From a virus (Duplodnaviria; Heunggongvirae; Uroviricota; Caudoviricetes), in the IMG/VR virus record IMGVR_UViG_2654588054_000003: a stretch of 64,000 nucleotides of DNA; one strand, given 5' to 3'. This document shows positions 51,001 to 63,000 of the stretch, piece by piece. Numbering within the stretch: position 1 is the stretch's first letter; the number at the start of each line of letters is the position of its first letter. Made by a program: the position numbers.

Positions 51001-54000
51001 GAAGGCGGGTCAGGCCGTGAACAACCTGCAGAAAATCTTTGATGATAAGCCGGACAGGGCGATCGATTCGCTGAATACCCCGGAAAATCTCGATGTGCTT
51101 TCCGGCGTGTTTGCCCCGGAACTACAACAGCGTATTGGCATGCCTGATTCAACCGGGGAAAAAACGATAAAAGAGGCCAGGATTGGCAGTATCGTACCGG
51201 CGCAGCAGGAAGGGTACGTACTTATTGGCCTTGATCTCACATACAGCGATGGCTCCACCGCGCATAAACCTGTAACAGAATACGGCAGTGCGCACCCTGA
51301 TGATCAAACCGTGCTGGCGATACCCGTTGATAAGGCTATCGCTCAGGTCAGGGATCGCAGCAAATTTGCAGAGATATCGAAAAATTATGGTTATTTTATG
51401 CCGAAGCAGCAGGGACTTTCTCTGAAAGAGCTTCAGAAGGGGGCCAGCAACGTAGCGGCGGACGCGATTAAGAATGGCGGTAATGCTCAGGCTGCGGTGG
51501 ATGAATATTATGCTGCGACTGGTTCACAACCGCATCAACAGAAAATTCAGCAACAAAAACTTCAGCAACAGGTTATCAACTGGGCGGGAGATGATCCTGA
51601 TAAGCTGTCATTTGCCAGAAATGTAGCGGCCCGTCAGCCTGAAATGCTGGAACCTCAGAATCAGAAATTGCTGGAGAACGGGTATGCGAATTTTCTCCGT
51701 ATTCAAAAGGCCAGGGGGGAACAGGCCAGAGATGAAAGTGCTTCATCTGCATCTCAGTTTATCCGTGGACTGAAACAGAATTACGCCCAGTAATTCACGA
51801 TATTCCATTAATACCATTTCCTGATGCCCGGCCATTGTGCCGGGTTTTTTTATGGAGTCTGTATGGCCTATTCAGAGGAACAGCGTCCTGAGGCGCAACT
51901 CGGTAACCAGAATCGTAACAGCCTGAACATTCAGCAACCCGGCGAAACTGACAGCTATGAAGCATTTTTCTCTGATTCAAATCGCTGGAAGGATAACAGT
52001 ACGTCGTTCAGCCTGGGCGATGTATTGCCAACAATGGGTAAAGGTTTCGCCCGGTCCGTCCGGGGAACAGGGGAAATGGCCCGTGGACTCGGTGATGCGA
52101 TGATTCAGAGCCCGGTAAAAACAGGGGCGCGTATTTTAAATGAGTTCAGCCGTATGGGGCTGCCGGGTGTCGCAACTGTGCAGGATATTTTTGCCGGTGG
52201 CAGCAGGGGGGCTGATGAGGTCATCGATACCCTGCCTGATGGCAAAAACGCGGTTACAGATACTGTCGGTAAAGGTCTGAAGGTCACCGGTAAGGCTGTC
52301 AGTGACGGCGCTAAATCCTCGGATGAATGGCTGACCAGTAAGATGTCTCCGGGTGCTCTGCGTGCGCTGAATACGCCGATGACCGAAGGCTATGATGATT
52401 CTGCGGTCTGGGTGGCGAAGGGCGTAAACCTGATTGGTGCCCTTGTACCTGATATGGTTGCTGGCGGTGTGGCTAAAAAGGTGGGTGATGTCACATTGCG
52501 AAAAACGCTGACCGCCGGGCTGGAGAAAAAATACATCGCGGCAGGGATGCAGCCGGAAAGAGCCACGGCACTGGCAGCAGAAGCTGTCGATAAAAAAATG
52601 CCGGATTTATTCCAGGCGGGCCTGATCACCCATTCCACAGCCAGTGCACAGGGGCAGAGTGCAATGGCGGCAGCAGATGCTGTTCTTAATGCGGATTACT
52701 CTGAGCTGGCGCAGTCACCGAAATTTCAGCAGACGTTTTTGTCCATTGACGCCGACCCGCAGCACGCACAGCTTACTGATCGCCAGAAAATGGATCTGGC
52801 AAAAGAGCGTGTTGCCGATGAGGTGCGCGCGCAGCTGGCAACCGATCCTGAATTGCTGGCTGTGAATGCCATGGCGGCAAAACTGGGTGACGCACAACTG
52901 TTTAATCTGGTGACACGAGGCACAGCGAAGACCGTTAAAAGCGGCATTGTCAGAAATGCCACGGAACAGGGGGCGATTAATGCGGCGCAGGGCGGCTATT
53001 CACGCTATCAGGAAAACACGGCATTGCGTGAGACCGCCGGAATGGATGTGTCACCGTGGGAGGGCGTGGCTGACGCAACGATCGAAGGTGCAGCCTTTGG
53101 TGCTGCGATGGGGGCTCCATCCGGTGCGGTTGCCGGATATCGTGGCAGACGTCAGGCCGCAGAAGAAGCAGCCATGCGTGATGCTGAAACCGTGCAGCAG
53201 GACGACGCAGCCCCGCAACCAGAATCTGTTGATCCGGTGGCGCAGCATCGTGAATCCATGCAGGGGATGAATCGCGAGCAGCTTCTGGAGCAGTATGCTG
53301 ATGCGGATATGGCAACAGAGGGGGACGCATCCGCAGCTCATCGCCGGGAAGCTGCCAGCCAGTTGTTGAATGAACTGGACGAACAGGCGAAGCGACAGGC
53401 TGTGATGAATGAGCTGAAGGCGAAGCCGCGTTCTGAACTGCTTGAGGAATACCGCAGACTCAGCCAGAAAGAGGAGCGCACCGAGACTGAAGAACAACAG
53501 TTTCAGGCAATACGAGAAGTCATTCGTCCACAACAGGAAGTGACGCCGGAAGCACAGTCACAGCCTGAAAATGCGGAGGATGGTAACGGGAGCATTTACC
53601 CGACGGTGCGGTTCCGGGACCCGAATGAAGTCCGCATTGAAATTAACGGGAATGGTGCGTCCAGACCAGCGGAACGCATTGAAAAGGTGCGCCCGGACAA
53701 CCGTTATTTCACGGATGAGAAAAGCGCCATGGGGAGTGATGTTTTCCGTAATGCCGCCGCCACCGGCCTGAAACCGTCCGTAGTGAAGAAAGGCGAGACT
53801 CAATATGCTGTTGAAATGGATAATCCTGCGTTCTCTGAAGATGTGGCAACGGAAACCATTAACACCCTGGCTGACGGAGAGCGTATTGCTGATGCTGACC
53901 CGATGGAGCAGCCCGCGTTCATGCGTGACCCACGATTCCGTGGTTTCACGGGGGATGATACGGAGGTACAGGCCCGCCTTGCCCGTGGCAACGTGCCGAC

Positions 54001-60000: not shown

Positions 60001-63000
60001 TCTGACCGGCGCAGAAAGAACGGCGTTCATTGACGAGAACAACGGAAAATTGTCGATGAACGGGCTTATGCAGGATACCCGGAAGAGACTGAAGGATTTG
60101 CGTAAACAGCGTGATGCCATTTACGCCGACAGTACTCTCAGTCTGGCGCAACAGTCGGCGATGGTGAAATCGGTAGAGCGGGATATGAAAATTGCCGTGG
60201 ATCGGTTTAACCGCGAGTACAACAAAAAAGTGGGAGTGGATTAACAGAAATGGCCCCGTACGGAAGTGCGGGGCTAATGTGATTGGGGAGGGTGAGGATA
60301 CCTGACACATCAGAGGTGGCGAGGGATTCCTCCCTTGCAGAGGTCTTTCTTCGTTATCAGTGCCGTCACAATGACGGTTAAACAGATGACGATCAGGGCG
60401 ATTAACATCGCCTTTTGCTGCTTCATAGCCTGCTTCTCCTTGCCTTTCGGCACGTAAGAGGCTAACCTACGTTTGTGAAGCATAGATTGGGCCTCAGATT
60501 AATGTTAAGCGTCTTGCAGGACGCGTAATGTTAACTGGGGCTTTTCTCTGTCTGCCTTACGGTGGCATGCCCGAGGCAGATAGCCTCAAGCACCCGCAGC
60601 AATTCTACTTAACTCTCCTTTTCCCGCAAACCGTTTTTATCTCCAGCGACAAATCGAATACACAACCAGCACCACCGCCATTACTGTTCCTACATTTGCG
60701 AATGCTTCAGGCCAGGTCATTGATTCACCTTCTGCTCAATATTTTTAAGGTCATTTTCCGCATACAGTATTGCAGTTCTTGCTGCCCGCAACCGTGCTTT
60801 GGTGTTCTTTTCTTCACGCTCGAGGCTGGCAACAGATTCTCGGAGCTGATCGTGTCTGTTATGAAGCTGTCTAATCTCTCTCACCACAGCCTCACCATCG
60901 TTCGCACACCGCAGAACATACTGAAAAGGGTCCACAACACATCCGCACTGCAAGCACAGGATAACGTGATCCTGTTCATGAACCTCAATGGCCCGATGCT
61001 TACAGCTCTGTTGTGTGTAGTTTTTTCTGCCAGTTACTGTAATGTTCAGCAGCTTCTCTTCATCGCGCTTTGGCTGCACCAGTGTGATGATATTATCGCC
61101 TTCATTTTCCATCAGTTCACCTCCTGCGGCGGTTCTGGTAGCGGCATCCAGTGTGACGGTTTCCACGACGTACCAGGAATTATCCACCCATCATTAGCGT
61201 CAGGATGCCCCGGGATGTAAGTCGCCCACTTCATTCGCCAGTCACCTTTCCTGTCAAACTCCACGGCAACAAGAACGGCTGTTTTGGTATCCGGCATTCG
61301 CTCACTACAACTTATCCAACCATCCGGAGTTACCGGAGAGTTGCCAGACAGCGCATTCTGCAACCGTTCCAGCTTAACGTATTCCTGAACCCTGTTTCCG
61401 TCGCACGCCTGAAGCCATTGCTCAGCCTTTTGCGCATCAGTGTGAAAGGCACAAGTGCGACCGTCATCAAATTGCATTTCGTAGAGGTTAGCAATCTGTT
61501 CAAACTGCGTGTGTGGCAACTTGTAAGTTTGGCTTACGAGTTCGGCTTCCAGTTCTGCTATGCGCTTCTCTGATGCTTCAAGTAACGCCTGCTTATCGCG
61601 TAGCGCTTCTTCCAGTTCAGCAACATGGCATTCACTATCAATAAGGTTGTTCTCTGCTGCTCCCAGCTCAACTCTCAGCTTCCCAACCGTAAGCGCAATC
61701 TCCTCGTTCTCCTGGTCGCGGCGTTTGATGTATTGCTGGTTTCTTTCCCGTTCATCCAGCAGTTCCAGCACGGTAGCCGGGTTAGCCTCTGCTATGAATT
61801 CAGCGTTGCATAAGCCTGAGCATCTGTTTCAACCAGGCAGTTAACATGACATTCTGCAATCACGCCACCGGGTTCTCCTTTCCATTTTTGGCAAACAAAA
61901 ACTCCTGTTAAATTGCCGTGCTGGTTAACAGATGTATGCCCTACGATGTAGCTTCCTTTAGTTGCTTTCTCTGCCTTTTCACGCAGTGCCTGATAGTCAA
62001 TCTTGCTCATTTTTCTCTTCACTCCGGTATACAAGGATTACTACGCCCCCTCTGCTAATTGCGCGAGCTGGATCCCCTGGTTCCATGCCGTCAATACCGA
62101 AGGCTTCGAAAAATGCATCTATTGCCTTTTGGCGTTGCTCCTGCTTACGGCGTTTATTCCATTTTTTCATGAACAACAGTGACAGCCATCGTCCGCTGCA
62201 GAACATGATGTAGAAATAACCAAGGAGCGCTAGGCCGGTGTTCAGGGCTGTATCGATCGTTATCGTGGTGTTGATGTTCACTTCACACCTCTCTGTTTGT
62301 TGATAAGTTCAATATCCTGCTGGCAACTGGCGCAAGCTCTGCATCCACGAACAGCCAGGCGTCGCCGCTCATCTATCGGATCGCCACACTCGCAACAATG
62401 AGTAGCAGATGGGGCATTACTATCGGATTTGTATTTTTGCAGGGAGAGATTGCGCTGCAATTCTTCGATTTCAGCGGCGTTGTCGATGATATCTGCCATT
62501 TTCCTTTCCTTCAGGCATGAAAAAAGGAGCCGAAGCTCCTTTGGTTTTAGAATTCGAATTGCCTTGCCCGCAGGCTTTTCAGCATTGGTCTGGCCCGCTG
62601 AACTACGAAACTCGACTGGTCAAGCCGTGCCGCCTCTCTCAGTAGCACATCTCTGTTCTTCGTCACCATGTAGATGGTCTCAAACGCAATGTCATACAGC
62701 TTGTTCGTGTATGAGGAGTTCAGCTCTTTCATGATCGGATACAGGTGTTTGCTGAGGTCCTGGGCTTTTTCCATCCAGAGTTGCATGTAGCAGAGGAGGA
62801 TGATTTCCTCGTCTGTGAATTGTTGCTGTGGTTCTGCTTGTGCCGACTGCATGTTGCGAAGTTTCTTTTCGCACTCGATGAAGTATCTGCGTATCTGTCG
62901 GCCTTTTTCGTTACGCTCTACCATCGCCGTTTCTTTGGCTGTATCGAGGGTAAGGTGGTAGTCTTTTTTCCCTCGCCCATAACCTATTTCCCGTTTCTGG

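Follow-up and report, generated by a model that had tools for sequence, protein, structure and literature searches.

What role a phage might assign to a single protein of 2,793 residues that contains two zincin-like HExxH motifs is the question raised by the locus described here. The protein is encoded in a 64,000-nucleotide stretch of the IMG/VR virus record IMGVR_UViG_2654588054_000003 (Duplodnaviria; Heunggongvirae; Uroviricota; Caudoviricetes), the whole of which is referred to as the window. Its gene occupies by far the longest open reading frame (ORF) of the window, which runs uninterrupted on the plus strand from position 51824 to 60244 (2,806 codons) and yields 2,793 residues when translated from the ATG at 51863; ORF calling and translation agree in this respect with the first-pass annotation of this DNA, which had named it as the largest ORF with the same length and boundaries. 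As final gene of the morphogenesis block, following the terminase, portal, capsid and tail genes, it is 99.7% identical on the DNA level to the gene encoding gp73 of Shigella phage Ss-VASD, which carries the RefSeq label 'LPD5 domain-containing protein'. Matches over the full length with at least 90% identity were found in 186 phage records, all of them from short-tailed Stx/Shigella/E. coli phages, PHROG 616 spans the protein end to end, and the window is a short-tailed Shiga toxin (Stx) prophage (Sepvirinae). We regard it as reasonably probable that the protein is a giant internal virion protein of Stx phages, polyvalent in its domain content and equipped with gluzincin domains, which would be ejected from the particle.

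Much of what supports this proposal is known from near-identical orthologues of the phages phi24B and Sp5, which are made late, are present in the virion without being part of the ordered capsid or tail, and are essential for infectivity and not for the assembly of heads or DNA packaging. In Sp5, where ORF80 (ECs1242) was described as 'an unusually large protein of 2,793 amino-acid residues', deletion of the gene abolishes plaques and lysogeny and leaves DNA-filled, normal-looking heads that are non-infectious (Mondal et al., 2016). In phi24B, gp47 was found by mass spectrometry to be abundant in purified virions while being absent from the cryo-EM model, and a preprint (2026) proposes it to be an encapsidated ejection protein. 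The proteome supplement assigns 10,962 peptide-spectrum matches (PSMs) to gp47, with a maximum in the uppermost gel slices, which lie above the band of the portal. Its peptides (residues 19–41, 116–128, 1260–1275, 1531–1543, 1728–1740 and 2467–2481) extend from the N-terminus through both HExxH domains and the MuF_C region to the C-terminal module, and therefore essentially the whole chain is packaged. The earlier suggestion of a packaged virion protein is in this way borne out by a near-identical protein detected along its whole length.

A second line of evidence resides in the amino acid composition. The giant protein does not contain a single cysteine, whereas the cysteine content of ten other window ORFs would predict about 25 (P about 1e-11). 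Cysteine is similarly avoided by its relatives, with 97 of the 109 related giants (representatives of at least 1,500 residues carrying peptidase 2, the domain of the second HExxH motif) being devoid of it and the entire set containing 23 cysteines in 296,569 residues, and it is absent from the giants of phages D62 (3,066 residues) and Bcep22 (4,602 residues). Cysteine makes up 0.54% of the residues in a control set of 36 stand-alone homologues from conjugative elements, which are about 870 residues long and correspond to a cassette within the giant protein. Cysteine suppression was previously reported for N4 gp50 and the DEV gp71–73 ejection operon and attributed to passage through the periplasm, and we find N4 gp50, gp51 and gp52 to be cysteine-free. 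Its avoidance in ejection proteins is not a new principle; applied to the present case, the purge supports ejection independently of proteomics, and it might be explained by ejection in an extended state, as proposed for the N4 and DEV virion RNA polymerase operons.

The protein contains exactly two HExxH motifs, HEWFH at residues 1284–1288 (ALAHEWFHSLDNY) and HEIIH at residues 1551–1555 (KLRHEIIHHAMEH). Both had been noticed in the first-pass annotation and both are real, although the positions given there (near 1300 and 1570) are off by 16–19 residues; counted from the upstream ATG, the motifs begin at 1297 and 1564. The description of the motifs as being separated by long low-complexity helical regions does not hold, as the 267 residues between them comprise a folded LPD1 subdomain, predicted with a local distance difference score (pLDDT) of about 90, and a linker of about 35 residues, whereas the real low-complexity tract (residues 440–880) is located upstream of both. 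In AlphaFold models and by fold similarity, the two motifs are placed in predicted zincin folds and not in non-globular regions. Within Pfam, searches with eight sub-segments at E-values up to 10 did not cover either motif, except for a motif-level hint to Peptidase_M76 (E 0.13).

The first of these domains, peptidase 1, was aligned in 70 sequences (residues 1195–1450), in which H1263, E1265, H1284, E1285, H1288, D1291, D1362, Y1369, E1375, R1379 and E1382 are invariant. Its AlphaFold model (256 residues, pLDDT 89.7, predicted template modelling score 0.90) displays the order of elements of a zincin, with an N-terminal helix, a three-stranded sheet, the HExxH helix and further helices, and it resembles known zincins including neprilysin and PepO, thermolysin and botulinum light chains. 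One of the later helices (H179–197 of the model) contains the sequence E1375-M-A-A1378, which is invariant in the 70 sequences and matches the glutamate-helix pattern (E/H-xx-A/F/T/S/G), making E1375 a candidate for the third metal ligand; E1382 is a further residue of this helix. A histidine terminating strand 2 and an aspartate three residues past the motif (HExxHxxD) characterize the phage-type clade of polyvalent-protein metallopeptidases (MPTases) (Iyer et al., 2017), and the pattern of H1263, HExxH and D1291 corresponds exactly to this clade. Since the invariant ExxA helix is located inside the LPD1 match and the 256 residues are predicted to fold as one unit, Pfam LPD1 is probably the glutamate-helix C-terminal half of peptidase 1 instead of a separate domain.

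For peptidase 2, a word-indexed search with the domain alone retrieved close relatives only and an exhaustive HMMER search with residues 1455–1720 was needed, which identified 395 cluster representatives at E ≤1e-3, most of those listed being 1,800–6,000 residues long. In 167 domains, trimmed and aligned with MAFFT L-INS-i, H1551 is conserved in 157, E1552 in 160 and H1556 in 141 sequences, compared to 69 for H1555, and the glutamate helix is defined by E1607 (162), A1610 (150) and E1614 (149). Because H1556 is far commoner than H1555, the motif of the family is mostly HExxxH, another variant described for polyvalent-protein MPTases (Iyer et al., 2017); the HEIIHH of the window protein fits both forms. 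The predicted model shows a zincin topology with similarity to this fold, and the conserved HExxH/HExxxH motif is accompanied by the E1607-xx-A1610 helix including E1614. As predicted structures, both HExxH domains of the giant are assigned to the zincins/gluzincins, each with a conserved glutamate helix of the ExxA type.

Besides the two predicted peptidases, the domain map (Table 1) is defined by four Pfam domains of polyvalent proteins, LPD5 (152 bits), LPD1 (84 bits), MuF_C (64 bits) and LPD38 (166 bits), each of which exceeds its cut-off of about 27 bits. The protein thus combines several unrelated domains, including LPD types and two zincin-like domains, within the virion genes of a phage, as is typical for a polyvalent protein. 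Its architecture had initially been likened to that of multidomain polyvalent proteins, which some phages package and eject with their DNA to counter host defences or remodel the envelope. The four Pfam domains, the virion mass spectrometry, the virion association of homologous giants in Bcep22-like phages and the predicted zincin folds speak for this interpretation, and ejection, catalysis and an anti-defence role would be compatible extensions of it that we infer, whereas remodelling of the envelope finds no specific support. Pfam searches with segments of the giant at E-values up to 10 gave no match to ATPase, lysozyme, SLT or cell-wall peptidase families, and motif scans for Walker A ([AG]xxxxGK[ST]), DEAD and SLT were negative.

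The map corrects two published annotations. In the phi24B preprint (2026), MuF-C of gp47 was called a metallopeptidase and proposed to degrade peptidoglycan. The same domain was classified as PBECR domain with a barnase/EndoU/colicin-RelE RNase fold, and not as metallopeptidase, the MuF-C of phage Mu itself being inactive (Iyer et al., 2017), and we find no HExxH in the MuF_C region (residues 1750–1837). In Sp5 ORF80, an AAA+ ATPase was hinted at by COG1483 (Mondal et al., 2016), a suggestion that we do not follow in view of the missing Walker A motif and ATPase family match. We have also discarded the label 'DarB-like' (PHROG 10089), whose match is limited to residues 2351–2681 in the LPD38 region and which does not apply to the Stx giant because it contains neither a methylase nor a helicase, with no Pfam matches to either.

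The C-terminal module had been described as a helical/hydrophobic domain. It does contain LPD38 within its 900 residues, followed by a helical tail, but its hydrophobicity is weak, with Gly-rich segments and a Kyte-Doolittle maximum of 1.2 at residues 2445–2467. Comparable features near the N-terminus are a weakly hydrophobic stretch at residues 181–208 and a Gly-zipper-like stretch at residues 409–426, as judged from hydropathy and weak Gly-zipper hints in Pfam. In PDB sequence searches, neither the whole protein (as single sequence) nor the C-terminal module (as profile) gave a meaningful match. The first 590 residues of this module (residues 1886–2475, positions 57518–59287), which are without a match in Pfam or the PDB, contain motifs (ARHAPERNAHI..INPKMPDGGSGMT, YVPLKG, TSYNPEF..N..RD, ENALRLS.Y, TVNFNRRG and NA.IQGT) that are strikingly invariant among phages of the Stx group, Vibrio and Burkholderia and, judged by this conservation, look like an uncharacterised enzyme or a highly constrained part of a machine.

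A comparison with relatives by tblastn and BLASTP points to a modular organization. The N-terminal module is 26% identical to the N-terminus of the giant of Vibrio phage D62 over 347 residues (E 8e-26) and is matched by 39 of the 109 related giants, and the C-terminal 900 residues are 42% identical to their counterpart in D62, 26% to those of Ralstonia phages and 27–28% to that of Bcep22 gp75 (E 1e-67). The D62 giant has both modules and peptidase 2 (E 1e-24) but not the cassette, its middle being occupied by a methyltransferase-like region. In 28 giants, peptidase 2 is separated from the C-terminal module by a median gap of 54 residues, into which a MuF_C stretch of about 220 residues is inserted in the present protein. 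Orthologues of the Salmonella type (P0030, P0043 and P0133), a close one of which is 73% identical in peptidase 2, are longer by about 270 residues, which are placed precisely at the boundary of LPD1 and peptidase 2 (residues 1452/1453, positions 56219–56224); one fragment carries the NCBI name 'phosphoribosyltransferase' and is not recognised by Pfam. We view this insert as an actual case of cargo having been inserted into a linker.

A different context is found for residues 882–1710, which in homologues retrieved with residues 1191–1720 are colinear with stand-alone proteins of about 870 residues that begin at the 882–1050 segment. One of them, an LPD5-peptidase-LPD1-peptidase protein of 874 residues (P0093), is encoded in a conjugative element on a metagenome contig (L004, 10001–12625, Selenomonadaceae-type) next to a TraG P-loop protein, two TrbL proteins, an M23 peptidase, a group II intron reverse transcriptase and a MobA/MobL relaxase with LPD7. 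The stand-alone conjugative-element proteins are 29–37% identical to residues 882–1710 and have both HExxH motifs about 232 residues apart, whereas they lack the N- and C-terminal modules of the phage protein, have a normal cysteine content and contain HExxH as second motif in place of the HExxxH that prevails in the giants.

Table 1. Features of the giant gene and its surroundings in the window, with the residues of the giant protein where these apply.
Feature	Residues	Positions	Strand	Basis or remark
Three small genes (217, 148 and 83 residues)		49153-49806, 49809-50255, 50266-50517	+	Cysteine-free; tightly packed; products in phi24B virions
421-residue partner gene (Sp5 ORF79, phi24B 'gp48')		50528..51793	+	Essential, cysteine-free, abundant in virion mass spectrometry
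Terminator-like hairpin and T-run		51826..51851	+	7-bp stem with 6 G-C pairs, then TTTTTTT; overlaps alternative ATG 51824
GGAG Shine-Dalgarno sequence		51854..51857	+	5 nt before ATG 51863 (read from sequence)
Giant polyvalent virion protein, coding sequence	1-2793	51863..60244	+	Corresponds to Ss-VASD gp73, Sp5 ORF80/ECs1242, phi24B gp47; zero cysteine
N-terminal conserved module	75-408	52085..53086	+	Homology to Vibrio phage D62 giant
Low-complexity linker, probably disordered	440-880	53180..54502	+	Rich in E/Q/R/P/A/G; composition windows; no Pfam match
Unnamed first part of cassette	882-1050	54506..55012	+	Motif IEDFGEEIKGAAK; BLAST boundaries against 90 homologues and consensus
LPD5	1051-1200	55013..55462	+	Pfam PF18799, E 1e-44
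Predicted zincin-like metallopeptidase 1	~1201-1450	55463..56212	+	HEWFH 1284-1288 (nt 55712-55726); LPD1 (1361-1440) in C-terminal half
Predicted zincin-like metallopeptidase 2	~1473-1665	56279..56857	+	HEIIHH 1551-1556 (nt 56513-56530)
MuF_C	1750-1837	57110..57373	+	Pfam PF18819, E 1.6e-17, 64-69 bits
C-terminal conserved module	1886-2791	57518..60235	+	Includes LPD38 and C-terminal helical tail
LPD38	2476-2681	59288-59905	+	Pfam, E 1.7e-48

The simplest reading of this pattern, and one in line with the polyvalent-protein concept of Iyer et al., would be a protein that combines a conserved chassis for delivery with a cargo of effectors that can be exchanged. The chassis would consist of the N-terminal module, peptidase 2 and the 900-residue LPD38 module and serve the incorporation into particles and the passage through the envelope, with the weakly hydrophobic or Gly-rich segments at residues 181–208, 409–426 and 2445–2467 being part of these modules. 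The swappable cargo, comprising the cassette at residues 882–1450 (LPD5 and peptidase 1 including LPD1) and MuF_C, would be delivered to the cytoplasm. In such a mechanism, the protein would reside inside the capsid and be ejected through the tail together with the DNA in an extended state. The gluzincins would most likely act after ejection, either by cutting the polyprotein at linkers to free the cargo or by cleaving host proteins such as defence factors, and the PBECR domain (MuF_C) would act on RNA.

The proposed role finds parallels in several known systems. Closest are the 'DarB-like' giants Bcep22 gp75 and JC1 gp69, which are equally multidomain, cysteine-free and located at the end of the virion module, and which share the homologous LPD38-containing C-terminal 900 residues preceded by an HExxH domain just upstream; JC1 gp69, a close homologue of Bcep22 gp75, is virion-associated, and Bcep22-like phages also have portal, capsid and head-closure genes in common with 933W. 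The cargo is different, with Bcep22 gp75 containing an N-terminal SLT transglycosylase, an Eco57I-type methylase, an SNF2 helicase and LPD3 where the Stx giant contains LPD5, zincin 1 with LPD1, and MuF_C. The virion RNA polymerases N4 gp50 and DEV gp71, of about 3,000–3,500 residues, are packaged, invisible in reconstructions and ejected, ejection being proposed here for the Stx giant. They contain an enzymatic core between helical N- and C-terminal regions, the latter with an HExxH 'zinc-binding' motif, and their operons (N4 gp51–52, DEV gp72–73) display the same extreme cysteine avoidance, with the giant encoded after smaller cysteine-free virion proteins. Unlike these, the Stx giant has no RNA polymerase module and its phage is temperate, with lambdoid regulation and no need for a virion polymerase. 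T7 gp14/gp15/gp16 and P22 gp7/gp16/gp20 are likewise internal proteins that are essential for infectivity and not for head filling, with the same proposed trans-envelope role, but the Stx giant is far larger, contains effector-type domains and shows no detectable homology to them; Foldseek gave only weak matches to 'internal virion protein D' (E 0.03–0.08). Finally, ArdC of R388/pSa, an antirestriction protein of 297 residues that acts in conjugation recipients, contains an ArdC-N single-stranded DNA-binding domain that is absent from the Stx giant.

Several points weigh against an ejected protein with active gluzincins, in which ejection, intracapsid location, zinc binding and proteolysis are all inferred. 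Deletion of Sp5 ORF80 leads to the loss of labelling by an antibody against the tail fibre (anti-ORF67), and the gene was classed as a tail-formation gene (Mondal et al., 2016), an effect that is not predicted for a pure ejection protein. In six-month-old phi24B virions, peptides of gp47 pile up in the slices of highest mass and trail downwards, which does not indicate discrete processing before ejection. The giant contains no strongly hydrophobic transmembrane helices (Kyte-Doolittle maximum 1.38), and searches of the PDB by sequence and by profile did not reveal homology to a solved ejection protein. Since neither the peptidase 2 profile nor that of the C-terminal module matched N4 gp50, gp51 or gp52 significantly, the likeness to N4 is an analogy only. 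In ArdC, the best-studied gluzincin of polyvalent type, the metal-site mutant E229A is fully functional in the assay used, suggesting that HExxH sites may be dispensable.

The latter result would be accommodated by the alternative that survives best, in which the zincin folds of the HExxH domains have been kept for a structural and not a catalytic role, such as a procapsid-entry signal or scaffold as in the C-terminal region of the N4 virion RNA polymerase, and the motifs themselves matter little. It would also account for the position of peptidase 2 always just upstream of the C-terminal module (in 28 giants, D62 and Bcep22 gp75), which resembles a part of the chassis and not an effector, for the mostly very large size of gp47 in virions, and for the N4 virion RNA polymerase, whose MPTase-containing region is needed for encapsidation while the protein is packaged unprocessed (Iyer et al., 2017). 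The full catalytic set is, however, kept across hundreds of divergent sequences, which would be unusual for a purely structural role, and we consider this explanation unlikely, albeit one to be taken seriously.

Considerably less probable is the proposal of the phi24B preprint that a metallopeptidase degrades peptidoglycan so that the ejection conduit reaches the inner membrane. Wall-degrading domains are frequent in ejection proteins of podoviruses, and the orthologous Bcep22 gp75 carries an N-terminal SLT. In the preprint, however, the activity is placed on MuF-C, a PBECR domain of RNase-like fold, and the giant contains none of the cell-wall families searched for in Pfam. We consider a peptidoglycan role unsupported because the zincin domains resemble endopeptidases acting on proteins and the cassette also occurs stand-alone in a conjugative element that already encodes an M23 peptidase.

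We assign a slightly lower and equally small probability to a tail component or ATP-driven tail-assembly factor, as implied by the phrase 'required for tail formation' and the COG1483 hint (Mondal et al., 2016). The DNA-filled heads of the ORF80 deletion without anti-ORF67 labelling would fit this view, but the labelling result was given as 'data not shown', and DNA-filled, normal-looking, non-infectious particles are also typical of ejection-protein mutants; besides the absence of ATPase features noted above, other proteins account for the complete tail of phi24B, in which gp47 has no density. That the two HExxH motifs are chance matches, for which the length of 2,793 residues offers room, has next to no probability, since both are conserved in distant homologues, 0.035 motifs are expected from the composition of the protein, two or more were obtained in 1 of 5,000 shuffles (P 2e-4), and both lie in zincin-like predicted folds.

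Concerning the start of the gene, the ATG at 51863 is preferable to that at 51824 because a terminator-like hairpin with a T-run (51826–51845) overlaps the latter, the GGAG is appropriately spaced from the former (Table 1), and RefSeq and the Sp5 literature agree, with a product of 2,793 residues from the same start in Ss-VASD gp73 and Sp5 ORF80. The first-pass annotation had made the same choice. Mass spectrometry of phi24B, with residues 19–41 as earliest peptide, contains no peptide that would decide the start, and the figure of '2811 aa' for phi24B gp47 describes a stop-to-stop six-frame ORF and not the start-to-stop product. The hairpin itself separates the upstream 421-residue gene from the giant gene within the late gene block. 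On a late transcript under Q antitermination, it may control how much of each product is made relative to the other, or it may increase the stability of the mRNA upstream of it. The giant gene is also unevenly annotated in databases. The phi24B record HM208303 contains short antisense ORFs inside it (4392–4715, 6867–7247 and 7598–7969, minus strand), labels such as 'similar to metallophosphoesterase' and 'ABC-type transport' are attached to antisense ORFs in some GenBank records, and other records split the gene into 5–8 hypothetical proteins (unusual annotations were listed for HM208303, AP005154 and AP004402). The antisense ORFs and the split gene are almost certainly annotation artefacts.

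The product of the 421-residue gene preceding the giant gene is probably a second internal or ejection protein. Its phi24B orthologue accounts for 1,634 PSMs, with batch PSMs exceeding those of the portal, and is labelled 'Transcription factor?' in the supplement; it probably corresponds to the 'transcription regulation factor' set aside as contaminant in the preprint. Its homology to a counterpart in Vibrio phage D62, whose gene also adjoins that of the giant, is real but partial (E 4e-12). In a comparison with Bcep22 gp74, only a short N-terminal G-F-A-Q-G-L motif is common to both, and the match was rejected as not significant. Together with the three small genes upstream, this arrangement weakly suggests that the genes at 49153–51793 and the giant gene may constitute an ejection-protein block resembling T7 gp14–16 or N4 gp52–50. 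The lack of cysteines in the upstream genes was rejected as proof of an operon, with four other late ORFs of the window being cysteine-free as well.

A further-reaching idea, which we put forward tentatively and do not favour over its negation, views the five successive cysteine-free genes at 49153–60244 as an Stx 'ejectosome' block. The giant protein would be its delivery chassis and carry swappable effector cassettes acquired from conjugative elements, namely LPD5 with peptidase 1, the PBECR domain and, in Salmonella relatives, an insert resembling phosphoribosyltransferases, which would be freed in the cytoplasm by the gluzincins of the giant itself and act against host defences. If this were true, cysteine depletion could be a general marker of ejected phage proteins that is readable from sequence alone.

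Two features were observed downstream. Directly following the giant gene is a hok/sok type I toxin-antitoxin module on the minus strand (60310–60595), with sok RNA at 60421–60595 (Rfam RF01794, 114 bits) and a coding sequence of the Hok/Gef family annotated at the matching position of Ss-VASD. Near the prophage end, an Rfam match to sRNA-Xcc1 was found at 63217–63305 on the minus strand (RF02221, 69 bits compared to a gathering score of 53).

Publications or RefSeq and Pfam already cover the gene and the family to which it belongs, the clades of MPTases and the zincin domains, the association with the virion and the cysteine signature of ejection proteins. To these, our analysis adds the probable assignment of LPD1 to a gluzincin, the affinity of the second site to HExxxH, a proposed map of chassis and cargo, the two corrected annotations and a possible block of five cysteine-free genes. 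Short-tailed Stx phages are vehicles by which Shiga toxin genes spread in E. coli and Shigella, and the essential gene of the giant protein makes up about 14% of their genome. With two predicted gluzincin domains and an RNase-like domain in a cysteine-free and probably ejected protein, precise residues can be named for mutation, and the domain picture offers a rationale for how Stx phages establish in new hosts.

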